In this document: positions 3,076 through 60,945 of the stretch, in pieces
Layout: the number at the start of each line of letters is the position of its first letter
Numbering within the stretch: the first letter of the stretch is position 1
Source of the DNA: an uncultured Chthoniobacterales bacterium
GTDB lineage: Bacteria; Verrucomicrobiota; Verrucomicrobiia; Chthoniobacterales; UBA10450
Assembly (NCBI GenBank): GCA_964235895.1
Contig: CAXSCV010000001.1
Span: forward strand, 20,880-84,879
Reading direction: 5' to 3'
Length of the DNA stretch: 64,000 nucleotides
Notes under the pieces: generated by a model
The model's database searches: none
Seen by the model: the letters and a program-made list of their open reading frames with translations, nothing else
What the model was told of the DNA's origin: nothing
Program-made: the position numbers and the translations under genes

Positions 3076-3085
3076 CTCGTTAGGC
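3076..3085 (+). repeat. Copy of over-represented 10-mer CTCGTTAGGC
   Basis: Exact match. The coding strand of htrA reads GCC TAA, so the motif supplies the stop codon. Confidence 0.9.
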
Positions 3086-4567
3086 GCCGGCTTTCAGGAC
3101 GGCGAAGGTTTTGCTTCCTTTGCGATCGAGATAAAGGAGAACGCCTTTGCGCGGATCCGCTTTCGTCAGAGCATCGCGAAACGTCTGCACGTTCGTGACC
3201 GGTTTGCCATCCACTTCGGTGATGACGTCTTCGCGTTCGATGCCTTGCGCGGAAGCGAGGCTGTCGTCGGCCACATCGGTCACGATAACGCCCTGCGTCG
3301 TTTCGATTTTCAAACGGGCCGCGACCTCCTTGGTTATTTCCTGCACCTGCAAACCGAACTTGTTCGTGTCTTCCTGCTTCTGCGGGCCCGGGCCGGGCGC
3401 GTTCGCGACGCGGCCGATTTCCCCAGGCAACTCTCCGGCCGTCACGGGAATTTTCAGCGTCTGACCTTTGCGCCAAACGGTCAGGTCGACACTTTGCCCG
3501 ACTTTCTTTTTGAGAATTTCGCGCTGCAATTGCGTGTCGCTCGCGACCGGCGCGCCATCGACTTGCGTGATGACATCGAAGGGCCGCAGGTCGCTTTTGT
3601 AAGCAGGCGCGTCGGCTTCGATCGTGCGCACGACCACGCCTTTCTCAAGGCCTTTGAAGAGATCGCGAATCGATTGGTCGTCGCCCAGCGTTTCGATGCG
3701 AATGCCGAGCCACGGCCGAATGATTCGCTGACCGGAAATTAATTGCTGGCCGATTTCGTTGACCAGATTGCTCGGAATGGCGAAGCCGAGTCCGCGATTC
3801 AATCCATTGATCAGCGTGTTCATGCCGATCACTTTTCCATCGATGTCGCAGAGCGGGCCGCCGCTGTTTCCGGGATTAATCGACGCGTCGGTCTGCAAAT
3901 AATCCGAGATCGAATAGCCGCTGTTCGAGATTAATTTGCTTCGGCCTTTTCCGCTGATCACGCCGTAGGTGAAGGTGTAATCAAGCTTGAAGGGCGCACC
4001 GATTGCGAAAGCGAATTGGCCCACGCGGATCGCATCGCTGTCGCCGATCTGCACCGTCGGCAAATTGTTCGCGTCGATTTTGATTACGGCCACGTCGGTT
4101 TTCTCATCCGTGCCCGCGACCTTGGCCTGAAATTCGCGGCCATCTTTCAATTTCACATCGATGCGGTCGGCGCCGTCGAGCACGTGATAATTCGTGAAGA
4201 TATATCCATCCGGCCTAACGATGAATCCGGAGCCTTCGCTTTGCAGCGGCGGCGCGCTGCGCGGATTGCGGCGCGAGTTGTTCTCGTCGGGCTGTGGTTG
4301 ATTTGGGAAAAACAAATCGTCGAGGCTGGACCCATCGCCGCCGTCGTTTTTCTTTGTCACTTCAATAATGACTACGCTTGGCGCGACGATCTCGAAGACT
4401 TTGGCGAAGGCGTTGTTTAATTGATGGACGACATCTTTGCCGGACTCGGCCGCGGCTGGCGGCACCGTCGGCGTCGGGCTGGTCTCTGCTTGCGAAAGCG
4501 GCGCGGCGGCGCGCAACGTCGCGATAAAAATGAGCGAGCAGCAGATCGAACTGGCGAAGCGGATCAT
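3080..4567 (-). CDS. htrA: Do/DegP/HtrA-family periplasmic serine endopeptidase with two PDZ domains
   Basis: Trypsin-like catalytic region including GNSGGPL, followed by two PDZ-like segments. The signal peptide MIRFASSICCSLIFIATLRAAAP begins at an internal ATG (4565-4567). The longer 617-aa ORF would run into the divergent kamA promoter region. Confidence 0.85.
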   Translation of the reverse strand: MIRFASSICCSLIFIATLRAAAPLSQAETSPTPTVPPAAAESGKDVVHQLNNAFAKVFEIVAPSVVIIEVTKKNDGGDGSSLDDLFFPNQPQPDENNSRRNPRSAPPLQSEGSGFIVRPDGYIFTNYHVLDGADRIDVKLKDGREFQAKVAGTDEKTDVAVIKIDANNLPTVQIGDSDAIRVGQFAFAIGAPFKLDYTFTYGVISGKGRSKLISNSGYSISDYLQTDASINPGNSGGPLCDIDGKVIGMNTLINGLNRGLGFAIPSNLVNEIGQQLISGQRIIRPWLGIRIETLGDDQSIRDLFKGLEKGVVVRTIEADAPAYKSDLRPFDVITQVDGAPVASDTQLQREILKKKVGQSVDLTVWRKGQTLKIPVTAGELPGEIGRVANAPGPGPQKQEDTNKFGLQVQEITKEVAARLKIETTQGVIVTDVADDSLASAQGIEREDVITEVDGKPVTNVQTFRDALTKADPRKGVLLYLDRKGSKTFAVLKAGA

Positions 4568-4662
4568 GAAAAACTTGGACACGAGACGAGCATAGCTGTT
4601 CAACGTGTTTTTGCGATGGACCTCGCTCTTTCGCCTGCGGCGCGCACCGAAAAGTGCCTGCA

Positions 4663-4690
4663 TTGACTTGATTGTTAAGGCTCTTAACTT
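4663..4690 (+). promoter_or_regulatory. Possible sigma70-like promoter for kamA
   Basis: TTGACT (4663-4668), 16-nt spacer, TAACTT (4685-4690), about 19 nt upstream of the ATG at 4709. Sequence resemblance only. Confidence 0.3.
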
Positions 4691-4708
4691 TTCGCCTAAC
4701 AACACAAA

Positions 4709-5917
4709 ATGCTCACTCTTGCCGCAGGCAAAAAGGATGGGAAAGAGTTTGTCTCTCACGCGCCGGGCTATTGGCCAAATGTCAGCGCGGAACTCTGGAA
4801 CGATTGGAAATGGCAGCTGAAAAATCGGGTCACGACACTGGCCCAGCTCGAGCAGCATCTCGAACTTTCCGATGACGAACGCAACGGCGTTTTGCTTTCG
4901 GGAACGAAGCTCGCGCTCGCGGTCACGCCGCATTTTTTTAACCTGATCGAACGCGATAATCCGAATTGTCCGATTCGGCGGCAGGTTGTTCCGCGCGTCG
5001 AAGAATCATGGGCCTCGCCTTATGATATGGCGGATCCGTGCGGGGAAGATTCGCACATGCCGGTGCCGGGTTTGGTGCATCGTTATCCGGATCGCGTTTT
5101 GTTTTTGGTAACGGATCGCTGCGCGAGTTACTGCCGTTATTGCACGCGCAGTCGTGTGGTCAGCGGCGTGGGCGAACAGGAATTGCACACAGAATTCGAC
5201 GCGATCTATAAGTATCTGGAAGAGCACACCGAAGTGCGCGACGTGCTTTTGTCCGGCGGCGACGCGCTTTTGTTCAGCGACGATAAGTTGGAGAAAATCC
5301 TCAGCCGGTTGCGCGCGATTCCGCACATCGAATTTCTCCGCATCGGAACGCGCGTTCCGATTTTTCTGCCGCAACGCATCACGCCGGCGCTTTGCCAGAT
5401 GCTGCAAAAATATCATCCGCTCTGGATGAGCGTGCACGTCAATCATCCGCGCGAGCTAACCATCGAAGTGAAGGAAGCGCTCGAGCATCTGGCCAATCAC
5501 GGCATCCCGCTGGGCAACCAGAGCGTGCTGCTCGCCGACGTGAACGACAATCTCGAGACGATGAAAACGCTCGTGCAAAAACTGCTCATGTGCCGCGTGC
5601 GTCCCTATTATATCTACCAGTGCGATTTGATTAACGGCTCGTCGCATCTGCGCACGTCGGTCGCGAAAGGCATCGAGATCATCGAGGGTTTGCGCGGACA
5701 CACGACCGGTTATGGCGTGCCGCAATTTGTCATCGATGCGCCTGGCGGCGGCGGCAAAGTTCCGATCAATCCCGGTTACATTCTCTATCACGACAACGAA
5801 AAAATCGTCATTCGGAATTACGAAGGCCAGATCTTCGAGTATCCGGAAGTTGGCGAAAACAAAGACGCGCAGTTTGCGCCGGCGCGTGAATACCACGACG
5901 AATATTTGTATTCCTGA
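4709..5917 (+). CDS. kamA: KamA-family radical SAM protein (lysine 2,3-aminomutase-like)
   Basis: CASYCRYCTRS radical-SAM cluster motif, N-terminal WNDWKWQLKNRV signature, 402 aa. Confidence 0.85.
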   Translation: MLTLAAGKKDGKEFVSHAPGYWPNVSAELWNDWKWQLKNRVTTLAQLEQHLELSDDERNGVLLSGTKLALAVTPHFFNLIERDNPNCPIRRQVVPRVEESWASPYDMADPCGEDSHMPVPGLVHRYPDRVLFLVTDRCASYCRYCTRSRVVSGVGEQELHTEFDAIYKYLEEHTEVRDVLLSGGDALLFSDDKLEKILSRLRAIPHIEFLRIGTRVPIFLPQRITPALCQMLQKYHPLWMSVHVNHPRELTIEVKEALEHLANHGIPLGNQSVLLADVNDNLETMKTLVQKLLMCRVRPYYIYQCDLINGSSHLRTSVAKGIEIIEGLRGHTTGYGVPQFVIDAPGGGGKVPINPGYILYHDNEKIVIRNYEGQIFEYPEVGENKDAQFAPAREYHDEYLYS

Positions 5918-5923: not shown

Positions 5924-6334
5924 ATGAATCGCAGCGCGCCAATCTTCCGAAGCCTGATCGCCGCGCTGGCCATGCTGGCTTGGTTCGTCGCTTCGAATCA
6001 TTGTTCGTTTGCCGCATCGTTCGAAACCGCGCCGCAGCCATCGGAATGTCCGATGCACACGTCGGCCAAACATTTGCCGGTGAAGAAGAGCGGCGCGGAT
6101 TTCCTTTGCTGCAAGAATTTGCCGGCGACTGCGGCCCTGGCGGCGAAGGCGATTGCGAAACCCATTTATATTGCGGCGCCGCCAGAGCTTTTCGCGGCGC
6201 TTGTTTTGGAAATCGAAGACGGCTCGCGGGAAAACGCGATCGTCTGTGACACCGGACCGCCCGGCGCGAACAATTTCGCCGAGTCCGTTCTGCAGCGGAG
6301 CATTCTCGCTCACGCTCCGCCGTTTCTGGCCTAA
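5924..6334 (+). CDS. Hypothetical Cys/His-rich membrane-anchored or secreted protein
   Basis: 136 aa with an N-terminal hydrophobic anchor and HC..., ECPMH and CC motifs. Starts 7 nt after the kamA stop. Its TAA stop lies inside a copy of the repeated 10-mer. Confidence 0.6.
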   Translation: MNRSAPIFRSLIAALAMLAWFVASNHCSFAASFETAPQPSECPMHTSAKHLPVKKSGADFLCCKNLPATAALAAKAIAKPIYIAAPPELFAALVLEIEDGSRENAIVCDTGPPGANNFAESVLQRSILAHAPPFLA

Positions 6335-6338
6335 CGAG
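6329..6338 (-). repeat. Copy of over-represented 10-mer (GCCTAACGAG on + strand)
   Basis: Exact match. Supplies the Ala-TAA end of ORF 5924..6334. Confidence 0.9.
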
Positions 6339-15474: not shown

Positions 15475-15475
15475 T

Positions 15476-19535: not shown

Positions 19536-20509
19536 AGGGTTTCCTTCCGCTCATCCTCGGCATCTTCGGAACCTTTGCCTTTTCCTGGCTTGGCCTAACC
19601 GTTGTTCCGAACTCCCAGATCGGTCATCTCGATCCACAAACGGACGAGGACGGCAACGATCCTTATCCCGCGCCGAAATCCGGGATGGCCGAGCGCGGCC
19701 GGCAGATTTATGCGGCGAACGGTTGCGTCTATTGTCACAGCCAACAGGTACGCGCGGATTACGCCGCCTCGGATATCGAGCGGAAATGGGGCGATCGCCG
19801 AAGCGCCCCGCGCGATTACATTTTCGATCGTCCGACGTTGCTCGGAAAAATGCGCATGGGTCCGGACCTTTCGAACGTCGGCAAGCGCGCACCCTCAGTC
19901 GACGAAAACGCGCCGACTCCCGATGCGACAGCGATCGCTCCGGCCGCGCCCGCGCCTGTGGCCAGCGCACCAACAAATTCTGCGCCCGCTCCCACAACCG
20001 TCGCCCCTGCCGAAGCAGCGCCGGCTGGTGCGAGAGCTCCCGCGGCCAGCGCTTCGACTGCCGTTGCCGTCACCACCGCCAGCGCAAAAACCGCGACGGC
20101 AATGTCAGCTCCATCGGCCGCCCCCACCGCGGCTAGCCAGGCTTCCGCGCCCGGGGTCAGCGCGCAGACAGCCGAAGTTTCCTCGGTTGGAAAGAATGGC
20201 GCACCGTTGCCTTACTCGGCCGCGTGGCATCATCTCCACCTTTACGCGCCGCGAACGGTCTCTCCGGATTCCAATATGCCGGCCTATCGTTTTCTTTATG
20301 AGAACCGGCGCGTCGGCGGTCAGCGCGCTGCCGATGCGGTCGCGCTCAGCGGCGAAGACGCTCCCGCCGCGGGTTGGGAAATTGTCCCGACTTACGACGC
20401 GAAATGTCTCGTGGCGTATCTCATGTCGCTCGATCAGTCACATGCTTTGAAGGAAGTGAAATCAACCGCGCCCGCTTCGCCGCCGGCGCCTGGAAAGGCG
20501 GTCAAATGA
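19532..20509 (+). CDS. CcoO-like monoheme cytochrome c subunit carrying a ~105-aa Ala/Pro-rich insertion
   Basis: GCVYCHSQQVR, GPDLSNVG and WHHLHLYAPRTVSPDSNMPAY match FixO/CcoO motifs. The low-complexity insertion lies between them. The ATG at 19532 overlaps the upstream stop (ATGA). Confidence 0.8.
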   Translation: MKGFLPLILGIFGTFAFSWLGLTVVPNSQIGHLDPQTDEDGNDPYPAPKSGMAERGRQIYAANGCVYCHSQQVRADYAASDIERKWGDRRSAPRDYIFDRPTLLGKMRMGPDLSNVGKRAPSVDENAPTPDATAIAPAAPAPVASAPTNSAPAPTTVAPAEAAPAGARAPAASASTAVAVTTASAKTATAMSAPSAAPTAASQASAPGVSAQTAEVSSVGKNGAPLPYSAAWHHLHLYAPRTVSPDSNMPAYRFLYENRRVGGQRAADAVALSGEDAPAAGWEIVPTYDAKCLVAYLMSLDQSHALKEVKSTAPASPPAPGKAVK

Positions 20510-21258
20510 ACGAGCGCACTCCTTCACCTGATCATCGGGCGCGCCAGGGAATGGATTATGGCGAAACCGAAGACGTGCAGAAAACGCACGCCGCGATTCA
20601 GCGCGAAAAAACCGAACCGCGCGCCGGTCTTGAGCCGCTTTCCATTTGGCTCATCGCCGTCTATGGGCTCGCGATTTTCTGCGGCGGCGCATATCTCGGC
20701 CGATACTCCGGCAGCTTCAGCGGCGATGGTTTGGATCCGTTAGGCGGCGCGCCGCGCGCGGCGAAAAACGGCGCTGCGGGCGCGCCCGGTGCGACGCAGG
20801 TTGCCGAGCTCACGCCAGCCGAACGTGGTAAGAAAATCTTCTCCGCCAATTGCGCCACCTGCCACCAGGCCACCGGTCTCGGAGTTGCCGGACAATATCC
20901 ACCGCTCGCTGGATCGGAGTACGTCAACGGCGGAACGCGACGCCTCGGGATGATTGTGCTCAAAGGGCTCGAAGGTCCGGTCACGGTGAAGGGCGCGCAG
21001 TTTGGCGCCGCCGTCATGCAACCGTGGGAGAAGACTTTGACCGACGCGAAAATTTCGGACGTGCTCACTTACATTCGTCAGGAATGGGGAAACAACTCGC
21101 CGGCCGTCTCGCCCGAAGGCATCGCGGCTTTGCGCAAGGATCTCGCCGGACATGCCGCTTCCTTCCACGAACCCGATCTCAAAGCCGTTCCCGAGGATGC
21201 GATGCTTCCCGGTGGCGAGGCCGCGGCTCCTCCGGGTGGCGCTCCACCGAAGCCGTAG
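20506..21258 (+). CDS. Membrane-anchored monoheme cytochrome c
   Basis: Internal ATG at 20506 (MNERTPSP...) overlapping the upstream stop. One TM helix, CATCHQ haem motif, Pro-rich C-terminus. Confidence 0.8.
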   Translation: MNERTPSPDHRARQGMDYGETEDVQKTHAAIQREKTEPRAGLEPLSIWLIAVYGLAIFCGGAYLGRYSGSFSGDGLDPLGGAPRAAKNGAAGAPGATQVAELTPAERGKKIFSANCATCHQATGLGVAGQYPPLAGSEYVNGGTRRLGMIVLKGLEGPVTVKGAQFGAAVMQPWEKTLTDAKISDVLTYIRQEWGNNSPAVSPEGIAALRKDLAGHAASFHEPDLKAVPEDAMLPGGEAAAPPGGAPPKP

Positions 21259-21334
21259 TCTAACGAGACGTCGGGCGCGGCGCGCCGGTTTCGCGCAGGA
21301 ATTATTTGTCGCCGAAGCGAAGCATTCGTAGCTA

Positions 21335-41345: not shown

Positions 41346-43733
41346 ATGCGCTTGCTCACGCAAAAACTCGGCACGCGCGGACTGGTCGTGGTCGGAATCG
41401 CGCGCGCGGAAATTGAAGATCAATTGCAGGCGCTCGGCGCGGACGTGATTGTTTCTCCGTCAGCGAAAGAGTTGCGCGATCTGCTCCCGCAGAATGGCCG
41501 GACGCCGCGGGCAGAGGCGGCGGTTTGGATTTATCCGAAGAGCGGGAGCGATGACAACGCGCAAATCGCCGAGCTCGCGCAGATGACTAACGAGCTCGTG
41601 CTTCTGCCATCGCCAGGTGCGGAACTCGCGAAGCGGCGGCCGCATTTAGTCGAGTGTTTTCGCGAGCTGGGTTTTGTGCCGGATTACGATTTCGATTTGA
41701 GCGAACTGGACAGTGCGGCGCTTCGTTTGGTCCGCTGCGGGAACGGCGCCGTCGCGGAAAATAATGGGGCGATCGAGAACGCGGTCGCGCGTTTGCATGA
41801 GCGCATTCATGGGCTGGAGCGAACCTTGCGCACGCGCATGTCGGAGCTGGAAATGGCCGACCAGCACATCGCGATTCTCGAGGAGAAAGTGCTCAACCTG
41901 AAGGAAGCGAAACGCGCGCTAAAGCAGCTCAAGCAGGAGAAACAGGCGCTGCGAAAATCGCCCGAGCGCAAAGTCGGACAGGTCTTGCTCGCGCCCTATC
42001 GATTGCCGCAAAAATTGTATCGCGAAGTGAGTAAGCGATTGCAGCGAACCGCGCCTAACGAGCAATCGACCAAGGTGGTATCGGCGCGCGCATATCAAGC
42101 ATGGCTCGAGCGGCATCGCGTGATCCCGGCGCAGTTGGAAGCGATGCGCGCGGCCGCGGCGAAGTTCGTGCAAGCGCCGCTGATCAGCATCATCACGCCG
42201 GTCTTCAACACGCCGGTTGACTGGCTGGAACAGGCGATCGCATCGGTGCTGGCGCAGGTTTACCAGAAGTGGGAACTGATCCTGATCGACGATGCTTCAA
42301 CCGATGGAGCGACCCTGGCCGCGCTCCCTGGCCTAACGACACGTGACCCGCGCATTCGAATAATCCGGCGCGAAAAAACCGGCGGCATTTCCGCGGCGTC
42401 GAATGACGGTTTGAAGATCGCGACGGGCGAGTGGATCGGCTTGCTCGATCACGACGATTTCCTGGAACCGGATGCGCTTTTTCGCACGGCCGAAGTGCTG
42501 CAAACAAAACCGGAAACCGATCTGATTTATTCCGATGAAGACAAACTGACCGAGCAGGGTTTCGACGCGCCGATGTTCAAACCGGATTGGTCCCCAGATT
42601 TTTTTCTTTCGTATAATTATCTCTGCCACTTCACCACCTTGCGTCGCTCTTTAGTCGAGGAAGTGGGCGGGTTTCGCCCGGCGTTCGATGGCGCGCAGGA
42701 TTACGATCTTTTCCTGCGCGTAATCGAAAAGACGCAGCGCATTCATCATGTCCCGCGCGTGCTTTATCATTGGCGGCGCAGCGCGAATTCCACTTCCGAT
42801 AACATCCGCCGCAAACCGAAAGCGCTCGAGGCAGGCAAGAAGGCGATCGACGAATATCTGCAACGCCGCGGCGAGCCCGGCTATGTCGCGGTCGATTGGC
42901 GGACGCACGCTTATTGGGTGAAACGCGAGATCGTCCGGCCGCGCAAAATCAGCATCATCATTCCGGCGCGCGATGGCATTCCGCTGCTCGAGCGCTGCAT
43001 CGCAAGCGTGGTAGCGAAGACGAGCTACGACGATTACGAAATCGTGATCGTCGATAACGACAGCCAGAGCGCGGAGGCGCGCGATTATTTTGCACGCACG
43101 CCGCATCGGCTGCTGCATTATCCGGGACCGTTCAACTTTTCGGCCATGAACAATTTCGCGGTCGAACAAACCGACAGCCCGTGGCTGCTTTTTTTGAATA
43201 ACGACGTCGAAGTGATCGAGAGCGAATGGCTGACCGCGATGGCCGAGCACGTGCAACGTCCGGAAGTCGGCGCGGTCGGCGCGCGTTTGCTTTATCCGAA
43301 CGACACCGTGCAGCACGCCGGTGTCGTGCTCGGCGTTGGCGGGATTGCGGAACATGCCTTCCGCGGACTGGGCGCGGAAGAGCCGGGCGTTTGCCGGCAA
43401 CTGCAAGTCACGCGCAATTATAGCGCGGTCACGGGCGCGTGTTTGCTGACGCGCCGCGAGGTCTTTGACGAGATGGGTGGATTCGACGAAGAGCGGCTGC
43501 CCGTGACTTTTAACGACGTCGATCTTTGTCTGAAAATGAGGCGCGCCGGATATCTCGTGGTCTACACGCCGTTCGCGAAATTGTATCATCACGAATCGGC
43601 CACGCGCCGTCGCAGCGAGGAAGCGCGCGAGACGGGCGTGATGCGGGAACGCTGGTCGGATTTTCTTGCGCGCGATCCTTGCTACAATCCAAATCTCTCA
43701 CGCGAGCAGGCCGACTTCTCGTTAGGCAATTGA
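41346..43733 (+). CDS. Large glycosyltransferase with an N-terminal coiled-coil region and two GT2 domains
   Basis: Two GT2 cores (ISIITPVFNT...DDASTDG and ISIIIPARDG...VDNDS) and a coiled-coil around aa 150-220. Start at 41346 or 41310. Confidence 0.8.
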   Translation: MRLLTQKLGTRGLVVVGIARAEIEDQLQALGADVIVSPSAKELRDLLPQNGRTPRAEAAVWIYPKSGSDDNAQIAELAQMTNELVLLPSPGAELAKRRPHLVECFRELGFVPDYDFDLSELDSAALRLVRCGNGAVAENNGAIENAVARLHERIHGLERTLRTRMSELEMADQHIAILEEKVLNLKEAKRALKQLKQEKQALRKSPERKVGQVLLAPYRLPQKLYREVSKRLQRTAPNEQSTKVVSARAYQAWLERHRVIPAQLEAMRAAAAKFVQAPLISIITPVFNTPVDWLEQAIASVLAQVYQKWELILIDDASTDGATLAALPGLTTRDPRIRIIRREKTGGISAASNDGLKIATGEWIGLLDHDDFLEPDALFRTAEVLQTKPETDLIYSDEDKLTEQGFDAPMFKPDWSPDFFLSYNYLCHFTTLRRSLVEEVGGFRPAFDGAQDYDLFLRVIEKTQRIHHVPRVLYHWRRSANSTSDNIRRKPKALEAGKKAIDEYLQRRGEPGYVAVDWRTHAYWVKREIVRPRKISIIIPARDGIPLLERCIASVVAKTSYDDYEIVIVDNDSQSAEARDYFARTPHRLLHYPGPFNFSAMNNFAVEQTDSPWLLFLNNDVEVIESEWLTAMAEHVQRPEVGAVGARLLYPNDTVQHAGVVLGVGGIAEHAFRGLGAEEPGVCRQLQVTRNYSAVTGACLLTRREVFDEMGGFDEERLPVTFNDVDLCLKMRRAGYLVVYTPFAKLYHHESATRRRSEEARETGVMRERWSDFLARDPCYNPNLSREQADFSLGN
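42053..42062 (-). repeat. Copy of over-represented 10-mer (GCCTAACGAG on + strand)
   Basis: Exact match in the GT2 gene. Read as P-N-E. Confidence 0.9.
43718..43727 (+). repeat. Copy of over-represented 10-mer CTCGTTAGGC
   Basis: Exact match in the GT2 gene. Read as S-L-G, immediately before the final Asn codon and the TGA stop. Confidence 0.9.
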
Positions 43734-48603: not shown

Positions 48604-48613
48604 CTCGTTAGGC
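48604..48613 (+). repeat. Copy of over-represented 10-mer CTCGTTAGGC
   Basis: Exact match. Supplies the Ala-TAA end of the dynamin-like gene. An inverted partial copy (GCCTAACC) lies 3 nt downstream. Confidence 0.9.
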
Positions 48614-48623
48614 GTGGCCTAAC
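48607..48623. terminator. Short hairpin formed by an inverted pair of the repeated motif core between convergent genes
   Basis: GTTAGGC-GTG-GCCTAAC (7-bp stem, 3-nt loop) spanning the stop codon of the dynamin-like gene and lying 22 nt after the stop of 47752..48585. There is no clear U-tract. Confidence 0.3.
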
Positions 48624-50332
48624 CGATTCTTCAAGGGCGCGAAGATCTTCTTCAGTTCTTCCACGCGGTCGAGCAACGGCTGGTAACGCTCTCGTTCGGT
48701 CGTGCAAAAGATGACGAGCGGCTGAAAGGCCGTGGCCACTTCGTTGTAGAAAAGGTCGATGGCGTGTTCCATTTGCTGCTCGATCGCGCGCACCAACTCG
48801 TTGCGCTTGGCTTCCATTTCCTTGTCGTAAGCGTTCAGAATTTTCCGCCGCTGGCCGAAGGCAAAAACAGTTCCAAGCACAAGCGCGGAACTGGCGATGA
48901 TGCCGGTCACGTCCGCTACTGAAGCACTGATCATCGCCGCAAGAATGGTCGCGATTCCGCCGGCGGCTGCGACTCCGGCGGGCAGGCGGAGCCAGGCCGC
49001 GCTCTCGCGGAACATACGTCCGAGTTGTTCTTCCACGCCCTTGCCCGCGACGCGTTCGACCAGGGTTAGCTGGATCGATTGCAGGAGCGCGCGACGTTGC
49101 TGGGCAAAATCCGGAATGGTTTTGTTCACGCGATTTTTTCCTTCGGAAGCAAACTTCGCTTCGAGCATGTCCTGCAACTGCGGCCAGAGTCCGCGCAGAT
49201 CGGCCTCGAGTAATTGCACCGCGTTCTCGACCTGCGGTTGCACGGTTTCGCGCAACTTCTTTTCCACTTCGTCCTGGAAATCGTGCTGCCATTTCTCGCG
49301 GCTAAAGATCAGCCGCCAAGTTTTGAAAAACGAAAGACGATCCTCGAGCAATTTCGTTCCGTGCTCCGCGCAATCGCGGCAAGCGCGCTCGACGCCGCGG
49401 AGAAATCCCGCGATCTGCCGCAGCGTTTGCTCTTTGCGCGTCTGCAAAAATGCGTTGACCCGCGCGAGATTTTCTTCGTCGCGCAAAATCATCTCGAAAC
49501 TTCCGCGCACTTCCTCCGCCACTTCTCCGAGCACCAAATCCGCGGTGCGCCCGGTCGATTGCAGCTTCAAGATGCGCGCGCCGGTTTCCGTGACCATGTG
49601 ATTGATCTGCGCTTCCAGCGGAGCGAATCCGCTCTCCTTCCAAAGCTGGTCGTTGCCAATCTCGGTCGTGCGCGCGAGCAAGGCCTTGCGCGCGGAGACG
49701 GCAAAAATCGGCGGCGTGAATCCGAGTTTTTGCAACGCCGTATCCGCCAGATGATTGCGCACGGTTTCGATCTCCGTCGCGTCGCGCAGGTCCGCTTGTT
49801 GCAAGACGAAGACGACATTCTTCAGCCATTTTTTTTGCACAAGATCGAGCAACGCCCAGGCCGATTTCGTCCACGGATTGGTCACGGAAAAAACGAAGAG
49901 CACGAGATCGGCGCGCGGGATGAATGTTTCCGTGATCGTCTGATGCTGCGGCACCATCGTGTTCGTGCCCGGCGTGTCGACAACATTGAAGTCGCGCAGG
50001 AACGCGATCGGCTCGTAGCGCTCGGTCAGTTGCGGCGAGACTTCGACTGATTTTGCTTCGTCGCCGTAACGGAAAATGTAAACGCGATCGGTCGCGGGCA
50101 GCACGTCGACGCGGGCAAATTCCTGACCGAAAAGTCCGTTGAGCAGCGACGACTTGCCGGCTTTCACTTCGCCGACGACGACGAAAAGAATCGGCTCGCG
50201 AATGTCGCTGAGCAGGCCTTGCAGAATTTCGAGACTGGCCGGATCGCGACGCATTTCCGTGCTCAATTTGAGCAAACCGGCCAGCGCGCTTTCCAGGTCG
50301 GTGCGGAGCTGCAGATAACTATCGGCCAGCAT
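48608..50332 (-). CDS. Dynamin-family GTPase (bacterial dynamin-like protein) with a C-terminal membrane hairpin
   Basis: P-loop GEVKAGKSSLLNGLFG, DTPG and VLQQAD motifs, long helical stalk, hydrophobic segment near the C-terminus. Confidence 0.8.
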   Translation of the reverse strand: MLADSYLQLRTDLESALAGLLKLSTEMRRDPASLEILQGLLSDIREPILFVVVGEVKAGKSSLLNGLFGQEFARVDVLPATDRVYIFRYGDEAKSVEVSPQLTERYEPIAFLRDFNVVDTPGTNTMVPQHQTITETFIPRADLVLFVFSVTNPWTKSAWALLDLVQKKWLKNVVFVLQQADLRDATEIETVRNHLADTALQKLGFTPPIFAVSARKALLARTTEIGNDQLWKESGFAPLEAQINHMVTETGARILKLQSTGRTADLVLGEVAEEVRGSFEMILRDEENLARVNAFLQTRKEQTLRQIAGFLRGVERACRDCAEHGTKLLEDRLSFFKTWRLIFSREKWQHDFQDEVEKKLRETVQPQVENAVQLLEADLRGLWPQLQDMLEAKFASEGKNRVNKTIPDFAQQRRALLQSIQLTLVERVAGKGVEEQLGRMFRESAAWLRLPAGVAAAGGIATILAAMISASVADVTGIIASSALVLGTVFAFGQRRKILNAYDKEMEAKRNELVRAIEQQMEHAIDLFYNEVATAFQPLVIFCTTERERYQPLLDRVEELKKIFAPLKNRLGHA

Positions 50333-53741: not shown

Positions 53742-53861
53742 GCGTTTAGTTTCTCGCAGCTTCGGTTTGGCGCAAGCGACTTCGCTCGTCACAGACGATG
53801 CCTGTACAAAGTTAGCCCGGCGTCGAAACGCCGGGCCACCAAACAAACAAAAAAGGATTCG

Positions 53862-54152
53862 TTAGGCTTTAATGTGTCCCGAGACCAGCTTGGTCATCTC
53901 GAACATGCTGACCTGGGTTTTGCCATTGAAGACCGGCTTGAGCGCGTCATCGGCATTGATGAGGGTGCGCTTCTTTTTATCCTGGCACCCATTCTTCTTG
54001 ATGTAGTCCCAGAGTTTCTTGGTGAGCTCGGAACGAGGAAGTGGTTTGGAGCCAACGATAGCAGCGAGCTTGTCGTCAGGTTGAACCGGCTTCATGAAAG
54101 CGGCATTCGGTTTACGTTTAGCGGGAGACTTGGTGGAAGTGGTTTTCGGCAT
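53862..54152 (-). CDS. SWIB/MDM2 domain-containing protein
   Basis: LAAIVGSKPLPRSELTKKLWDYIKKNGCQDKKKRTLINADDALKPVF is a typical SWIB core preceded by a basic N-terminus. Confidence 0.85.
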   Translation of the reverse strand: MPKTTSTKSPAKRKPNAAFMKPVQPDDKLAAIVGSKPLPRSELTKKLWDYIKKNGCQDKKKRTLINADDALKPVFNGKTQVSMFEMTKLVSGHIKA

Positions 54153-56106: not shown

Positions 56107-57459
56107 ATGGAATTTCGCGTAAAGCGGGCGCCGCGCATCGACACCGAGATCACCGTCCCGGGCGACAAAAGCATCTCGCATCGCGCGGTCATTCTCGCTT
56201 CGCTTTCCAACGGCGTCTGCGTCCTGCGCGGATTTTTGCCGAGCGAAGATTGCATGCGCACGGTCCAGGCCATGCGCGCGCTCGGGATCAAGATCGAGCA
56301 ACCCGAACCCGAGATGCTCGTGGTTCACGGAAAGAAACGGCTGCTCACGCCACCAGCCGGCGAAATCGATTGCGGAAACTCCGCCACCACCATGCGTTTG
56401 CTCGCTGGATTGTTGGCCGGCCAAGCGTTCGATAGCCGGCTCGTCGGAGGTTCGAATCTTTCGAAACGCCCGATGGATCGCGTGATTTTCCCGTTGCGCG
56501 AAATGGGCGCGAACATCGCCGCGGAAGGGCCTAACGACACTCCGCCTTTGCGCATTACCGGCGGGAAATTGCATGGCATCGAATACACTTCGCCGATCGC
56601 CAGCGCGCAGGTGAAGAGCGCGCTCCTTTTGGCCGGCTTGTTCGCCAAAGGCAAAACGACCGTGAACGAGCCGATGGCCAGCCGCAATCACACCGAGCTC
56701 ATGCTCAATTATTTTCTGGTGCGCACGATCAAGGAAGAAGGCGGCGGGATCAGCGTCTTCGGCGATTCCGTTCCCGAATCGCGTGACTTCACCATTCCCG
56801 GCGATATTTCTTCCGCGGCCTTTTGGTTGGTCGCGGCCGGAGCGCAACCGGGCGGTCATCTACTCGTTAGGGACGCGGGCCTGAACGACACGCGCACCGC
56901 GCTCCTCGGAGTTTTGATTCGCATGGGCGCGCAGGTGCGCGAAGCGGTCGAGGACGTCGATCAAATCGAGCCGCGCGGCATTGTCGAAATCACCGGCGCG
57001 TCGCTTCGCGGCACGGTTATTCAAGGAAAGGAAATTCCGCAACTGATCGACGAGCTGCCCATTCTCGCGGTCGCGGGCGCGCTCGCCAGCGGCACCACCA
57101 CCATTCGGCAAGCCGCGGAATTGCGCGTGAAAGAAACCGATCGCATCGCCGCCATCGCGCACAATCTCCGCGCCATGGGCGCGCAAGTGATTGAGCTGAA
57201 CGACGGTCTCGAGATTCATGGTCGCGGCACGTTGCGCGGCGCGCGCGTGGCCAGTTTTGGCGATCATCGCATTGCCATGGCCTTCGCGGTCGCGGGACTT
57301 TTCGCGGAGGGTGAAACGGTCGTGCAGGATGCGCAATGCGTGCACGAGTCGTATCCGGAATTCGGCAAAGCGCTCGAGGATTTCATGAATCCGAAACGCA
57401 TGCGCGCGACCACGCCGGTGATTAGTTCGCTCAGTCCCTCGAAGAGCGATGACGACTAG
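56107..57459 (+). CDS. aroA: 3-phosphoshikimate 1-carboxyvinyltransferase (EPSP synthase)
   Basis: VPGDKSISHRAVILASL, CGNSATTMRLLAGLLAG, KETDRIAAI, DHRIAMAFAVAGL. Confidence 0.95.
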   Translation: MEFRVKRAPRIDTEITVPGDKSISHRAVILASLSNGVCVLRGFLPSEDCMRTVQAMRALGIKIEQPEPEMLVVHGKKRLLTPPAGEIDCGNSATTMRLLAGLLAGQAFDSRLVGGSNLSKRPMDRVIFPLREMGANIAAEGPNDTPPLRITGGKLHGIEYTSPIASAQVKSALLLAGLFAKGKTTVNEPMASRNHTELMLNYFLVRTIKEEGGGISVFGDSVPESRDFTIPGDISSAAFWLVAAGAQPGGHLLVRDAGLNDTRTALLGVLIRMGAQVREAVEDVDQIEPRGIVEITGASLRGTVIQGKEIPQLIDELPILAVAGALASGTTTIRQAAELRVKETDRIAAIAHNLRAMGAQVIELNDGLEIHGRGTLRGARVASFGDHRIAMAFAVAGLFAEGETVVQDAQCVHESYPEFGKALEDFMNPKRMRATTPVISSLSPSKSDDD

Positions 57460-58120
57460 CGCGCATCGCGTCATCGCCATCGACGGCCCGGCTGCTTCCG
57501 GCAAAAGTAGCGTCGCGCGCGCGCTCGCGCGCCAACTCGGTTTCGCTTACGTGAACTCCGGCGCGATGTATCGCGCGCTCACCTGGCATGTGCTCGATCG
57601 CGGCGTCGATCCGCGCGACGCCGATGCGGTTGTTCGTTTAACCGAAACGACGCCGCTCGAATGCGATTTGCAGAACGGCGAATCGCGCATTCTCATCGAT
57701 CGACTCGATCCCACGTCGCATCTGCGCGACCCGCGCGTGAACGAAAACGTCTCGTTAGTCAGCAGCGTTCCGCGCTTGCGCGAAATCCTCGTCGCACAGA
57801 TGCGCGCCTATGCGCTCGCGCACGATCTCGTCATGGAAGGACGCGACATCGGCTCGGTTGTATTCCCCGATACGCCTTACAAATTTTACATCGACGCTTC
57901 GCAGGAAATTCGTTCGCAACGCCGCGCCGCGCAGGGCCAGACCGACCAAATCGCCGCGCGCGACCGCGCGGATTCCTCGCGCCGCGATTCGCCGCTGACC
58001 ATCGCGAGCGACGCGCATGTGATTGACAGTTCGCATCTTTCCATCGACGGCGTGGTCGACGAAATCATCGCGCAGCTGCGCACGCAAAATTTTCGCGCCG
58101 CAGCCAGCGTTTCGCCCTAA
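57449..58120 (+). CDS. cmk: (d)CMP kinase
   Basis: IAIDGPAASGKSSVARALA P-loop, GRDIGSVVFPD. Confidence 0.9.
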   Translation: MTTSAHRVIAIDGPAASGKSSVARALARQLGFAYVNSGAMYRALTWHVLDRGVDPRDADAVVRLTETTPLECDLQNGESRILIDRLDPTSHLRDPRVNENVSLVSSVPRLREILVAQMRAYALAHDLVMEGRDIGSVVFPDTPYKFYIDASQEIRSQRRAAQGQTDQIAARDRADSSRRDSPLTIASDAHVIDSSHLSIDGVVDEIIAQLRTQNFRAAASVSP

Positions 58121-58123
58121 CGA

Positions 58124-58753
58124 GTGGCTGCCTCGCGCGCTTTCAATCCAGTTTATTGGGGCGGTTATTATCTGACCGTCATCCTGGCGCGTTTGTTTTT
58201 TCGCTTCCGCGTCGTTCATCGCGAACGCCGGATTTTGAAAGGTCCGGTCATTCTCGCGCTCAATCACCAAAGTTATCTCGATCCGCCGCTCGCCGGCATT
58301 TCGTCAGGCCGCGAAGTTTATTTTCTCGCGCGCAAAACATTGCTCAACGTGCCTGTCCTGAGTTGGCTGCTGCCGCGTATGAATGTCATTCCGGTGGACC
58401 AGGAAGGAACCGATCGCAGCGCCTTGAAAGCGTTGATTCGAATCCTGAAAGCCGGCGAGGGAACGGTCGTTTTTCCCGAGGGCGCGCGGACGCTCGATGG
58501 CAACTTGCAACCCGCATTGCCCGGCCTCGGTTTCGTCATCGCGAAAACGCTCGCGCCGGTTTTGCCGATGCGAATTTTCGGCGCGCACGAAGCGTTGCCG
58601 CGCGGCGGCGGCCGCTTGCGTTTTCATCGCATTACGCTGGTCATCGGCGAGCCGATGTATTTCACCGAAGCGGATCTGGAACCGCGCGGCAAAGAAACTT
58701 TTCAACGCCTGAGCGATCGCGTGATGGCAGCGATCGCCGCGCTCGAAATCTAG
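58124..58753 (+). CDS. plsC: 1-acyl-sn-glycerol-3-phosphate acyltransferase family protein
   Basis: NHQSYLD (HX4D) and VFPEGART motifs. GTG start. Confidence 0.85.
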   Translation: MAASRAFNPVYWGGYYLTVILARLFFRFRVVHRERRILKGPVILALNHQSYLDPPLAGISSGREVYFLARKTLLNVPVLSWLLPRMNVIPVDQEGTDRSALKALIRILKAGEGTVVFPEGARTLDGNLQPALPGLGFVIAKTLAPVLPMRIFGAHEALPRGGGRLRFHRITLVIGEPMYFTEADLEPRGKETFQRLSDRVMAAIAALEI

Positions 58754-58755
58754 GA

Positions 58756-58765
58756 CTCGTTAGGC
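58756..58765 (+). repeat. Copy of over-represented 10-mer CTCGTTAGGC
   Basis: Exact match, intergenic, 3 nt after the plsC stop. Confidence 0.9.
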
Positions 58766-58819: not shown

Positions 58820-59026
58820 ATGAATTCCGAGGATGCGCCGCCGTCGTCGCCCGCGCCGCGGAGCGGTTTGTGGTTGATGGCGTTCATCCTTCTCGTGATG
58901 GCGGCGGTGGCCATTTTTTCGAATGTGCAAAAAGCGCGGCGCGCGCAAATCGAGACGGTCACAATCAAGCCCATCGCTTCGCCGACTTCCTCGCTCTCGC
59001 CCACGCCGTCCTCGGCCGCGCCCTGA
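58820..59026 (+). CDS. Small hypothetical single-TM protein
   Basis: 68 aa with one TM helix (LWLMAFILLVMAAVAIF) and an S/P-rich tail. Coding status is uncertain. Confidence 0.4.
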   Translation: MNSEDAPPSSPAPRSGLWLMAFILLVMAAVAIFSNVQKARRAQIETVTIKPIASPTSSLSPTPSSAAP

Positions 59027-59104
59027 TTTTTTCTTTCGCGTCGCAGACGGCCTCGCTCGTTCTTTGCTTCGAATAACCTGCGACCGTCCTGGTCTAACCA
59101 CACG

Positions 59105-60931
59105 ATGAAAAAATTCAGTCTCTTCCCCCTTCTTGCCGCGTTCGCGTTGATTGTTTCGTGCGAAAAACCCCAAAGCGAGGCCGACAAAAACGCCGAGATC
59201 GACCGACAGGTGCAGCAGCGTCTCGACGCGCAAAAGCAAGCTGACGATCAAACCAAACTGGCGCAACAACAGGCGGATCTGAGCGCGCGCGAACAGGCTT
59301 TGGCCGATCGCGAAGCTGCCGCGTCGGCGACCGCGACTGCGACCGCAACGCCGCGCCAGGTTGCGAGGACGGAAGACGATTCCGATTCATCCGCGCGCGT
59401 GAGTTCGTCGAATCGCGAAACGAGCAGTTCCTACGACACATTTTATCGCAAGCTCGAACCGTACGGCGCATGGCGCGAGACCGATGATTACGGTTTCGTT
59501 TGGCAACCGCGTCAGGCGCAATCGCGCGACTGGCGCCCTTACACCAACGGCCGCTGGGCTTACACTGACGCGGGCTGGACCTGGGTTTCGGAAGAGCCGT
59601 TTGGCTGGGCCACTTATCACTACGGACGTTGGACGCGGCTGCGCAACGTCGGCTGGGTTTGGGTGCCGGGTGAAGAATGGGCGCCGGCTTGGGTTTCGTG
59701 GCGCAAAGGCGATCAAAATGTCGGCTGGGCGCCGCTTCCGCCGGAAGCGCGTTTCGATCGCAAGACCGGCATTAAGAAATGGGCCGACAGTTATTACGAC
59801 ATCAGCGCCGATGAGTACGTCTTTATTCCGAACGAAGACATCGGTTCCGAGCGCCTCGAGCGCGATATCATTCCGGTCGAGCGCAACGTCAGCATCGTGA
59901 ACCAAACGAGCAACGTGACCGACATCACTTACAACAACACCACGGTCGTGAATGAAGGACCGAACTTCGACGAACTACGCGGTCGCAGTCATCGACCGAT
60001 CGAACGGATGCGTTTGGAACGGCAATCGAACATCGAGCAAAATGGCGAACCGCGCGCGGTTGTGCGTGGTGGAATTCTTTCGATGGTCGCGCCCGCCTTC
60101 ACCGGTCGCGCAACCGAGCGGCCGAGGAATATTGGCGAACCGATCCACGGCTCGCAGGTCGATCGGAACTGGACGCACAACGCGAATCAGCCCGAGGCCG
60201 AGCGCGCGCGTGCCAAGATGAAATCCGAAGCGACGCCGCCGCCGAACGCGCCGCCGAAGCGCTTTGAAAAACCGGTCGCGCCCTCGGGTGGGAATATGCC
60301 AACGCCAGCCGCGACCGCGAGTGCTACGGCAACCGCCGCGCCGATCGTCGCGCCGACCGCAATTCCGCGACCAACCGCCGCGCCGCGAATTGCGCCCACT
60401 CCGCGCGCCATTGCAACACCGGCCTCGACCGCGACGCCTGTCGCGGCTCCGACAGCGGCAGCCGCGCCGAGCGCCCCGTTCAATCGCCGCGAAGATCAAC
60501 TTCGCCGGACCGAAGAAGCGATGGAGAAGAAGCGTCAGATGGATTCGCAACGAAAAGGAAATCGGCCACCGAATATTCCCGCCGCTTCACCGGCCGCGGA
60601 GAATTCTCCGGAAGCTAATCAGGCAACGACTCCAATTGTCGCGCCGCGAGTGGTGGCGCCGCGCCCGATCTCGACCGCGAATTCGCCGGAACAAGCGACG
60701 ATTCCGCCGCGCGAAGGAAAGACGAATCCGAGGCGAAATATTCCGCCCGCGGCCGTCGCGCCGACGGCAACTGCGGTTCCGGCAGAAACCGCCGCCGCAA
60801 ATGCGAATGCACCCGCGACCGCCGAACCCAATTCCGCGCGCCACGGAAACGATCGCAAAGATCACAAAGGAAAACGGCCGCCGGAAAAACCGGACGCGAG
60901 TGCGAATCCGAGCGGAAGTCCGGAGCCGTAA
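59105..60931 (+). CDS. Lipoprotein with a coiled-coil N-terminal region, a Trp-rich central domain and a long Ala/Pro-rich tail (hypothetical)
   Basis: Lipobox ALIVSC. The central region is rich in W/Y/G repeats (YGAWRETDDYGFVWQP...GWTWVSEEPFGWATYHYGRWT...GWVWVPG). The C-terminal ~230 aa are low complexity. Confidence 0.75.
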   Translation: MKKFSLFPLLAAFALIVSCEKPQSEADKNAEIDRQVQQRLDAQKQADDQTKLAQQQADLSAREQALADREAAASATATATATPRQVARTEDDSDSSARVSSSNRETSSSYDTFYRKLEPYGAWRETDDYGFVWQPRQAQSRDWRPYTNGRWAYTDAGWTWVSEEPFGWATYHYGRWTRLRNVGWVWVPGEEWAPAWVSWRKGDQNVGWAPLPPEARFDRKTGIKKWADSYYDISADEYVFIPNEDIGSERLERDIIPVERNVSIVNQTSNVTDITYNNTTVVNEGPNFDELRGRSHRPIERMRLERQSNIEQNGEPRAVVRGGILSMVAPAFTGRATERPRNIGEPIHGSQVDRNWTHNANQPEAERARAKMKSEATPPPNAPPKRFEKPVAPSGGNMPTPAATASATATAAPIVAPTAIPRPTAAPRIAPTPRAIATPASTATPVAAPTAAAAPSAPFNRREDQLRRTEEAMEKKRQMDSQRKGNRPPNIPAASPAAENSPEANQATTPIVAPRVVAPRPISTANSPEQATIPPREGKTNPRRNIPPAAVAPTATAVPAETAAANANAPATAEPNSARHGNDRKDHKGKRPPEKPDASANPSGSPEP

Positions 60932-60935
60932 AATC

Positions 60936-60945
60936 GCCTAACGAG
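60936..60945 (-). repeat. Copy of over-represented 10-mer (GCCTAACGAG on + strand)
   Basis: Exact match between convergent genes. On the minus strand it reads ACT CGT TAG and gives the TAG stop of the exonuclease-ligase gene. It lies 5 nt after the stop of 59105..60931. Coordinates are anchored on the ORF ends. Confidence 0.85.

Follow-up and report, generated by a model that had tools for sequence, protein, structure and literature searches.

The motif at gene ends of the window

The window, a stretch of 64,000 nucleotides from an uncultured Chthoniobacterales bacterium, carries 28 copies of the word GCCTAACGAG, compared with 0.04 expected. A sequence-only reading of this DNA had drawn attention to copies lying on or beside gene ends, and all of the sites it named are present as described. 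The copies at gene ends, either exact or with one mismatch, are listed below, and the gene identities checked against Pfam are marked.

3076..3085, minus strand: exact motif, supplies the TAA stop of the HtrA-like protease gene 3080..4933 (Pfam-checked)
6329..6338, plus strand: exact motif, supplies the TAA stop of ORF 5924..6334
21258..21267, plus strand: one-mismatch copy GTCTAACGAG; its first G doubles as the last base of gene 20374..21258, which ends in TAG
24570..24579, plus strand: exact motif, supplies the TAA stop of the COX1 (ctaD) gene 22686..24575 (Pfam-checked)
27171..27180, minus strand: exact motif, 9 nt past the stop of the COX2 gene 26268..27161, in the post-stop hot zone described below (Pfam-checked)
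37022..37031, minus strand: one-mismatch copy GCCTAACGAC, supplies the TAA stop of a 67-aa basic protein
38894..38903, minus strand: exact motif, supplies the TAA stop of the thioesterase gene 38898..39335 (Pfam-checked)
43718..43727, minus strand: exact motif within the glycosyltransferase gene 41310..43733, ending one codon ahead of its TGA stop
48604..48613, minus strand: exact motif, supplies the TAA stop of the dynamin-family gene 48608..50332 (Pfam-checked)
53858..53867, minus strand: one-mismatch copy, supplies the TAA stop of the SWIB-domain gene 53862..54152 (Pfam-checked)
58115..58124, plus strand: one-mismatch copy CCCTAACGAG, supplies the TAA stop of the cytidylate kinase gene 57449..58120 (Pfam-checked)
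58756..58765, minus strand: exact motif, 2 nt past the TAG stop of gene 58124..58753 (the '+5' register)
60936..60945, plus strand: exact motif, supplies the TAG stop of the ATP-dependent DNA ligase fusion gene 60938..63646 (minus strand, 902 aa; Pfam-checked)

The cytidylate kinase copy is a third one-mismatch stop, missing from the list in the sequence-only reading. The copy at 60936..60945 reads ACT-CGT-TAG on the opposite strand and also lies 4 nt past the stop of gene 59105..60931. At the COX1 gene, the motif closes a C-terminal tail whose length and sequence differ from one relative to the next. The Ala-stop end of the 67-aa basic protein, on the other hand, is kept in 22 of the 24 species compared, and therefore this end has not been remodelled.

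The same reading had placed about 40% of the copies within 10 nt of a stop codon, which is too high: nine of the 28 exact copies in the window (32%) lie that close, or 13 of 59 (22%) if one-mismatch copies are included. Over the whole genome the share is 15.1%, compared with the 2.9% of positions that would qualify under uniform placement. Approximately 85% of the copies are thus more than 10 nt away from any stop.

Distribution in the genome and the genus

Genome-wide, GCCTAACGAG occurs 1,549 times in 3.39 Mb and is the top 10-mer by a wide margin. Its orientations are balanced (765 forward and 784 reverse): same-orientation neighbours make up 51% of neighbouring copies, the forward:reverse counts per contig (27:28, 16:24, 14:21, 26:20, 30:33 and similar) show no skew, and runs tests on the eight largest contigs match expectation. 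A Chi/KOPS-type polar motif is ruled out by this absence of skew per contig and by the 51% of same-orientation neighbours. One 1.18 Mb contig of G008, another motif-rich species, is mildly asymmetric (162:118).

The motif consists of a rigid core, CTAACGA, with weaker flanks (t-Y-[motif]-T-S-S-T) and no conservation past about 4 nt. With a simple codon-usage caller, which called 2,922 genes and 83% of the genome as coding, 1,171 of the 1,549 copies (about 75%) lie inside or overlap genes, and the motif is found in frame within conserved genes. Given the unconserved flanks and these in-frame copies, a REP/MITE-type mobile repeat can also be discarded. Motif deserts of at least 10 kb number 13, compared with 0.9 expected, and overlap in part with regions of atypical G+C.

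The motif is abundant only within one genus of soil/peat Verrucomicrobiota: across 24 species of that genus its copy number ranges from 51 to 1,404, and in other families of the same order it is 0-14. We also searched for another hyper-abundant word in motif-poor members of the genus; neither the 400 kb examined in G002 nor the 800 kb in G005 contained one, so that the idea of a different 'dialect' in these species was dropped. A search for published work on GCCTAACGAG or on uptake sequences in Verrucomicrobia returned nothing relevant.

Copies that supply the stop codon

Genome-wide, 134-145 copies act as the stop codon, providing TAA in one orientation and TAG in the other; taking the higher count, the stops of 145 of the 2,922 called genes (about 5%) come from the motif, which accounts for about 9% of its copies. 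The claim that the motif concentrates on or just after stops and often supplies them is thereby borne out. When copies lying wholly within 30 nt downstream are included, about 10% of gene ends carry an exact motif. These are not spurious short ORFs, as genes with motif stops have a median length of 295 aa (262 aa overall), and the enrichment is robust when limited to long, high-scoring genes. Nor does the motif account for how often TAA is used (42%, a high value): without the 95 motif stops the figure is still 40.6%, and TAA usage in motif-poor relatives is 27-33%.

Most of the spike at the stop is due to the TAA/TAG within the rigid core. Registers that overlap the stop codon hold 182 of the 234 stop-proximal copies, and the motif-poor G005 and G002 already have near-matches (8/10 or better) in the stop register far above their intergenic rate, by 32-37 times in sense and 16-26 times in antisense; the corresponding values for the exact motif in its own genome are 99 and 52 times. 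Fine-scale peaks also appear where the T or A of the stop fills a preferred flank position, at -13, -10 and +2 in the sense orientation and at +3, +5 and +6 in antisense, with a TAG stop in 9/9 cases of the +5 register and TAA/TGA in 13/13 of the +6 register.

A genuine gene-end preference is nevertheless left after conditioning on TAA/TAG, the control that the sequence-only reading had proposed. TAA stops carry the motif 1.9-fold more often than intergenic TAA (p 6e-7), whereas for TAG stops the ratio is 1.05 and not significant (6.0% vs 5.7%, p 0.73). In G008, TAA and TAG stops are both about 2-fold over far-intergenic DNA (p 0.03).

A hot zone behind the stop codon

After stops, motif density per kb-strand is 1.85 in the first 10 nt (0-9), falls to 1.07 over the following ten (10-19 nt) and to 0.49 over 20-39 nt, and is about 0.25 farther out. 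The proportion of TAA/TAG triplets that belong to the motif declines in the same way, from 12.9/17.3% in the first post-stop bin and 11.3/14.7% in the next to about 3/5% at greater distance; over the first 20 nt it is about 11-17%, compared with about 2-5% farther away. Conditional on TAA/TAG, the first 20 nt are 3-5-fold above the remaining intergenic DNA, and the excess there is put at 3-7-fold overall, although the fold-enrichments may be inflated up to about 2-fold by genes that the caller missed in 'far intergenic' DNA. The enrichment is present at every spacer length and was replicated on the G008 contig (odds ratio 4.6, p 1e-4), while near-matches in motif-poor genomes show no such gradient.

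Hot-zone copies outside the anchored registers are orientation-neutral (38 vs 40). In-frame copies are depleted in the zone (14/85, p 7e-4), and this rules out a role for downstream copies as in-frame tandem stops. We also asked whether decayed copies at the stop tend to be followed closely by a fresh one, and they do not (odds ratio 0.97).

C-termini and the origin of the copies

We compared the ends of motif-stop genes with those of their orthologues, since the sequence-only reading had asked whether the motif has remodelled C-termini. The end coincides with that of the orthologue in 40% of motif-stop genes and in 50% of other genes. Motif-stop genes were longer than, the same as and shorter than their orthologues in 32, 31 and 15 cases, and other genes in 343, 715 and 365; the resulting bias towards longer ends has an odds ratio of 2.3 (p 0.01, an optimistic value because some genes were reused against several relatives). 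Judging from these comparisons, remodelling is modest, and where ends differ the bias is towards short extensions. That the differing motif-stop genes are more often slightly longer suggests a 'stop capture', in which an in-frame copy in the hot zone would become the stop once the original is lost and the protein would gain a few residues.

In motif-poor relatives, the sequence aligned to coding copies of the motif is only 52% identical, compared with 70-72% for random 10-mers of the same genes. With the motif-rich G008, 26% of the coding copies are exactly shared, compared with 8.5% of controls. The copies are therefore derived, sit at poorly conserved sites and arose directionally.

Why copies accumulate at gene ends

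We consider it probable that GCCTAACGAG is a drive-amplified word that accumulates where constraint is lowest, and that it does not serve a function at gene ends. A directional, genome-wide process would write this genus-specific word into the chromosome; the driver is most likely biased DNA uptake and recombination, as for the DUS and USS uptake sequences. ComEC, DprA and three secretins are present in the genome, but these are near-universal in bacteria, and no sequence-specific receptor was found. Local constraint would then decide where copies persist. At a stop codon, three of the ten motif bases are fixed beforehand by selection, and the remaining seven are shared between the last codon and the start of the 3' flank; the stop register is also the only way for the word to occur in that frame. 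From the stop codon onwards, fading within 20-40 nt, there is a sharply bounded permissive zone that may be the least constrained DNA of the genome, possibly the stretch under the terminating ribosome, upstream of whatever terminator, promoter or start signals there are. Stop capture would be a third contributor to the association with stop codons. Relaxed constraint may thus be the reason for the excess in the first 20 nt, a region in which the intergenic DNA of relatives (about 70% identity) is unalignable. The word probably crowds behind stops as these spots tolerate it, rather than as a means of ending transcripts.

It is unlikely, in our view, that the word is positively selected as a DNA-level mark of gene boundaries, covering the stop and the first 20 nt or so after it and organising DNA uptake, recombination or the binding of a protein gene by gene. 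The hot zone does begin exactly at the stop codon, and it is asymmetric: 3' flanks hold 2.7 motifs per kb and 5' flanks, next to starts, only 0.45 per kb, with no enrichment near starts. About one gene end in ten carries the exact motif, and the thioesterase stop comes from an exact motif in six species of the genus (its own and five others) and from a one-mismatch copy in three more, despite a tail beyond the conserved ...KYR that differs in length among species. However, most stop-anchored copies are not common to the two motif-rich species compared (an exact motif at the stop was found in 0/9 of the orthologue pairs examined in G008), and the great majority of copies lie away from any stop. 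If such a mark did exist, the stop codon and C-terminal residues would have been rewritten in 5-10% of all genes.

A functional 3'-end element like the paired DUS/USS of Neisseriaceae and Pasteurellaceae seems quite improbable, whether as a terminator component, as a structure that stabilises the RNA or as a protein roadblock setting the transcript end. Such an element would agree with a real and sharply bounded enrichment after stops in two species and with convergent spacers being the densest intergenic class (0.93 per kb), and, among the known DUS/USS, half fall within terminators that have been predicted (bioRxiv 10.1101/2025.10.24.684340). One small inverted pair does exist between convergent genes of the window, where the motif at 48604..48613 and a partial copy, GCCTAAC, at 48618-48624 form a 7-bp stem. 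The sequence-only reading had likened this hairpin to paired DUS in Neisseria; the hairpin is real but not statistically unusual (z = -0.95), and the likeness does not hold genome-wide. Inverted neighbour pairs within 30 nt are at chance (16/632, 2.5% vs 2.3% expected). Folding energy at motif stops is -21.0 vs -19.2 kcal/mol, a gap that matches the G+C difference, the paired fraction of motif bases is 0.52 vs 0.52, and T5 runs near motif stops show no excess (9-12% vs 9%). No terminator-like site overlapping a motif copy was found, nor was the G+C-rich hairpin with T/U tract of an intrinsic (Rho-independent) terminator at the gene 3' ends. No terminator signature thus emerged, and a paired-hairpin terminator is ruled out by the chance-level pairs and the lack of extra folding and T-runs. 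Density is also equal or higher in operon-type tandem spacers of 10-39 nt (5.1 per kb), where termination would harm, both orientations are in use, and most copies lie within or overlap genes.

Finally, a pure bookkeeping artefact, in which the TAA/TAG within the word forces it into the stop role in that frame without any true preference for gene ends, would account for the TAG result, for the near-match excess in motif-poor relatives and for the dominance of stop-overlapping registers, but it is largely refuted by the excess at TAA stops, by the stops of G008 and by a 20-nt post-stop excess that involves no stop overlap and that near-matches in motif-poor genomes lack, and we regard it as very unlikely.

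Comparison with known repeat systems

The drive-amplified word that we favour has its closest counterparts among uptake sequences. Like the Neisseriaceae DUS (GCCGTCTGAA and dialects; 10-12 nt), it is short and non-palindromic, occurs about once per 1-2 kb, equally on both strands and in genes as well as spacers, is clade-specific, contains a stop triplet in one frame and is enriched just downstream of genes. Both are found at poorly conserved protein positions and are missing from foreign-looking DNA (PMC2817400; bioRxiv 10.1101/2025.10.24.684340), and the motif is consistent with published uptake-sequence biology in its poorly conserved positions and its absence from recently acquired genes (PMC2817400). 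Unlike the DUS, it shows no inverted-pair excess and no terminator features, and its stop frame is heavily used (9% of copies, 5% of genes). In N. meningitidis, the 'AV-stop' frame holds 0/653 of the in-ORF DUS (PMC2817400, Table 2) and stop-frame DUS are rarely seen (bioRxiv 10.1101/2025.10.24.684340), although the counting rules may differ from ours. The host phylum is also different, namely Verrucomicrobiota, where an uptake role is putative.

The Pasteurellaceae USS (AAGTGCGGT / ACAAGCGGT) resemble the word in that about two thirds to three quarters of copies are intragenic, and in a reading-frame bias and a placement explained by molecular drive plus constraint. A modest bias of USS to gene termini is attributed to van Passel 2008 in PMC2817400. 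Unlike our word, the USS core has no stop triplet and therefore cannot supply stops, and USS pairs form terminators whereas pairs of this word do not. Thus, the word agrees with DUS/USS-type signals in copy number, orientation balance, clade limit and poorly conserved sites; the inverted-repeat terminator pairs that are typical of such signals, but not strictly defining, were not found, as close pairs are at chance genome-wide.

The REP/BIME repeats of Enterobacteria are likewise concentrated directly 3' of genes. REPs are imperfect palindromes of 20-40 nt that fold, occur in non-coding DNA only and are tied to RAYT transposases. The present word, unlike REP/BIME, is 10-14 nt long and unstructured, has unconserved flanks and lies mostly inside genes.

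Implications

In Neisseria and Haemophilus, where the words form hairpin pairs, gene-end enrichment and terminator function are confounded; here the two are separated. The recurrent 'GCC-TAA-CGAG' ends and small C-terminal length differences in this genus are best annotated as by-products of the word and not as functional motifs. If the word is an uptake-type signal, it would provide a clean natural experiment on molecular drive versus purifying selection, in which word density would act as a constraint map at single-register resolution and would expose a 'free zone' of roughly 20 nt behind stop codons. It would also mean that 5% of the stop codons in a genome can come from a word that is selfish or neutral, with a C-terminal Ala or Thr/Ser-Arg imposed on the proteins concerned.

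A stop-containing word and its range

Dinucleotide-preserving shuffles of the 64-kb window predict 0.04 copies of the word GCCTAACGAG; the window has 28, and the whole assembly (3.39 Mb, 143 contigs) has 1,549 (765 forward and 784 reverse), where the word is by a wide margin the commonest 10-mer. Its one-mismatch copies (1,748 in the assembly) showed that positions C3-T-A-A-C7 and A9 are rigid and positions 1, 2, 8 and 10 tolerant, so that the most rigid part of the word includes its TAA, read as TAG on the opposite strand. Weak base preferences flank the word at -2 (T), +10 (T, 62%), +11 and +12 (anything but T) and +13 (T, 50%). Nothing is conserved farther out, so the word does not belong to a longer mobile element.

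The host lineage is a genus of about 34 species of uncultured soil and peat Verrucomicrobiota; among named records, MAGs labelled 'Spartobacteria', 'Verrucomicrobiae' and 'Chthoniobacterales' come closest. Many of its species, though not all, carry the word in abundance (51 to 1,404 copies; 24 genomes), and other families of the order have it at background level (0-14 copies). Our literature search found no paper on the word or on uptake sequences in Verrucomicrobiota. Chi/KOPS-type polarity was excluded from the orientation of copies along the contigs of our genome. The two orientations are balanced there, unlike on contig C3 (1.18 Mb) of the motif-rich relative G008, a stretch with negative GC skew on which they are mildly skewed (162 forward versus 118 reverse). 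The motif-poor relative G005 carries on contig C4 a very abundant hexamer-periodic repeat, (CGACAC)n, with the 10-mer CGACACCGAC present about 200 times in 800 kb; these may be coding low-complexity repeats.

Copies at stop codons

Genes were called with a self-written, self-trained codon-usage caller (2,922 genes, 83% coding). All window sites at gene ends named in the sequence-only reading were as described in these calls, and Pfam confirmed the gene identities. The word itself supplies the stop codon in six of the 28 exact copies (five as TAA, one in the opposite orientation as TAG), and three further copies, at 27171, 58756 and 43718, lie within 10 nt of a stop. The share near stops is therefore 9/28 (32%), not the 'about 40%' first estimated. 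One-mismatch copies supply three stops in the window, including those already recognized and an additional one at 58115 (cytidylate kinase).

Genome-wide, the proposed proximity to stops held at a smaller size: 234 copies (15.1%) are at most 10 nt from a stop or overlap it, versus 2.9% of genome positions. Assigned to the nearest stop, 95 copies form TAA and 39 form TAG; a count by gene gives 95 TAA and 50 TAG motif stops, or 5.0% of genes. The offsets adjoining these registers hold just 0-2 copies each. We then conditioned on the triplet. The motif contains 7.4% of TAA stops versus 4.0% of intergenic TAA (odds ratio 1.92, p = 6e-7) and 2.3-6.9% of out-of-frame coding TAA; for TAG, the values are 6.0% of stops versus 5.7% of intergenic triplets (p = 0.73).

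The motif-poor relatives G005 and G002 stood in for a genome that lacks the word. In the anchored register, where the TAA or TAG of the word is the stop, matches of at least 8/10 in these genomes already reach 32-37 times the intergenic rate in sense orientation and 16-26 times in antisense; the stop fixes three of the ten bases. The exact motif reaches 99 times (sense) and 52 times (antisense) in our genome. Given the excess of near-matches in G005 and G002, the spike at the stop is mostly an anchoring effect. Secondary peaks lie at -13, -10 and +2 (sense) and at +3, +5 (TAG in 9/9) and +6 (TAA or TGA in 13/13) (antisense), precisely where a T or A from the stop codon coincides with one of the flank preferences of the extended, 14-nt word. 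This fine structure agrees with anchoring, and 182 of the 234 stop-proximal copies are in registers that overlap the stop. In our genome and these relatives, stop usage is unusually TAA/TAG-rich for genomes of 58-64% G+C, independently of the motif: our genome has TAA 42%, TGA 33% and TAG 25%, G002 uses about one third of each, and TAG is commonest in G008.

A hot zone behind the stop codon

The word is also concentrated in the first 20 nt or so after the stop, as measured with copies wholly inside intergenic DNA.

Density of the word by distance after the stop (copies per kb-strand)
0-9 nt: 1.85
10-19 nt: 1.07
20-39 nt: 0.49
more than 39 nt: about 0.25

The coding-sequence mean is 0.19 per kb-strand. 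Within 0-9 nt of the stop, 12.9% of TAA and 17.3% of TAG triplets are inside the motif, at 10-19 nt 11.3% and 14.7%, and farther out about 2-3% and 3-5%. The gradient thus stays in place under conditioning, and the internal stop triplet does not remove the hot zone. Near-matches in motif-poor genomes showed no comparable post-stop gradient, so that base composition is not the explanation. The zone begins at the stop; the last 13 codons are at coding-average density except in the two anchored registers. Enrichment was seen at every spacer length, was densest in spacers of 10-39 nt (tandem 5.1 per kb, convergent 9.5 per kb) and persisted with long, high-scoring genes only. No enrichment was found beside start codons (divergent spacers 0.45 per kb versus 2.7 per kb after stops).

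The pattern recurred in the replication sample, one 1.18 Mb contig of G008, a second motif-rich species. There, 31 of 280 copies supply stops. The motif contains 5.0% of TAA stops, 4.8% of TAG stops and 2.4% of the triplets in far-intergenic DNA (stops versus far-intergenic: odds ratio about 2.05, p = 0.03); in the first 20 nt after the stop its share is 10.3% (odds ratio 4.6, p = 1e-4). Since the hot-zone excess survives TAA/TAG conditioning and replicates in G008, a preference for gene 3' ends exists, and the enrichment is not wholly an artifact of the internal triplet, the alternative that the sequence-only reading had set against its own claim.

Effects on C-termini

The question whether the motif has remodelled C-termini had a mixed answer. 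Orthologues in G002 and G005 end at the same residue about as often for motif-stop genes (14/30) as for others (205/399; p = 0.71), and typical changes at motif stops keep the stop position (K-K-S to K-K-A, or TGA to TAA). A length bias was seen in a pooled test of six pairwise comparisons, in which the comparator was always without a motif stop.

Gene ends compared with orthologues
Motif-stop genes: longer 32, same 31, shorter 15
Other genes: longer 343, same 715, shorter 365

The same end was kept by 40% of motif-stop versus 50% of other genes (p = 0.08), and motif-stop genes were more often longer than shorter (odds ratio 2.3, p = 0.01), in tests that reuse some genes across comparisons and are suggestive only. 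Extensions were mostly of 1-7 residues among the pairs listed for the motif-poor comparisons. Of 85 hot-zone copies, 14 have their stop triplet in the frame of the gene upstream, which is fewer than expected (p = 7e-4). Together with the length bias, this suggests 'stop capture', in which an in-frame hot-zone copy becomes the stop after loss of the original one.

In six species, our own included, the conserved ...KYR of the thioesterase leads into a tail of 1-8 residues that closes with the Ala-stop of the motif; three more species have one-mismatch copies at the stop, and G014 has the core CCTAACGAG (P-N-E) in another reading frame directly before TGA. Many motif-poor species already end in ...KYR-A-stop via GCC-TAA or GCC-TGA. 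Among the 24 species compared, 22 have an Ala-stop end in the 67-aa basic protein, where anchoring alone accounts for the motif-like stop. The C-terminal tail of COX1 is hypervariable. The sense stop register places a terminal Ala on 95 genes, and the antisense register, through the extended word ACGACTCGTTAGGC, repeatedly produces C-termini of the form ...(T/S)-(T/S)-R (60938-60946 in the window). A separate conserved box, ...CAGTTGAAAAA / ...CCGGTTGAAAAA, is found in most species of the genus 15-30 nt downstream of a stop (window 37230-37275, downstream of the 534-aa gene at 37275..38879). Where the gene order differs, it is present behind the thioesterase stop as well. The box is probably a -35-like promoter element that serves the next gene.

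Tests of a terminator role

The inverted pair at 48604-48624, which had been likened to paired uptake sequences in terminators, exists but is not unusual (z = -0.95). Close pairs are at chance genome-wide: pairs within 30 nt were found in 16 of 632 convergent neighbour pairs (2.5% versus 2.3% expected). Folding around motif stops (-21.0 versus -19.2 kcal/mol in controls) is consistent with the higher G+C of these windows (0.593 versus 0.565), the paired fraction is 0.52 for motif bases and control positions alike, and T5 runs are no commoner at motif stops (9-12% versus 9%). A consensus terminator scan of 20 kb gave 41 sites versus 32.8 ± 6.1 in shuffles, none at copies of the word. The high density in short operon-type spacers and the neutral orientation outside anchored registers (38 versus 40) also argue against a transcript-level role. 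TAA-C and TAG-G, the stop contexts that the word produces, are not known to be strong termination contexts. The word is very probably not a terminator.

Origin of the copies

The genome comparisons covered samples of three relatives, and relatives are about 70% identical to our genome at the DNA level. We aligned the coding copies of our genome to such sequence. Against motif-poor relatives the aligned sequence is 52% identical, versus 70-72% for random 10-mers of the same genes. Against G008 the distribution is bimodal, with 26% exactly shared (controls 8.5%) and the remainder matching at about 5/10 positions. The low identity and the bimodal sharing show that the copies are derived. Each arises where conservation is poor, through several substitutions in the direction of the word, and copies turn over between species. 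We also found 13 gaps of at least 10 kb without even the 8-mer core, versus 0.9 expected; the largest (contig C14:27703-54277, outside the window) spans 26.6 kb at 51.4% G+C, versus 58% for the genome. These gaps are probably recently acquired islands. Copies at poorly conserved sites and their lack in such gaps are published as typical of uptake sequences that evolve by molecular drive (PMC2817400), and an uptake process may likewise drive the word. ComEC, DprA and three secretins are encoded in the genome, and their presence does not discriminate.

There are differences from known systems. The DUS contains TGA. Its AV-stop frame holds 0/653 in-ORF copies (PMC2817400, Table 2) and is 'rarely seen' (bioRxiv 10.1101/2025.10.24.684340), whereas the stop frame is heavily used here, although the counting rules may differ. 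Published DUS and USS also have hairpin pairs, of which the word shows no excess.

The stop codon acts as an anchor for the rigid, A/T-containing core of the word, and we suggest that the 20 nt behind it are the most permissive DNA of the genome, possibly covered by the terminating ribosome so that no signal is able to sit there. The stop-codon association of the word is real, and the best reading is that it was left by a directional process acting genome-wide, subject to constraint that varies from place to place.
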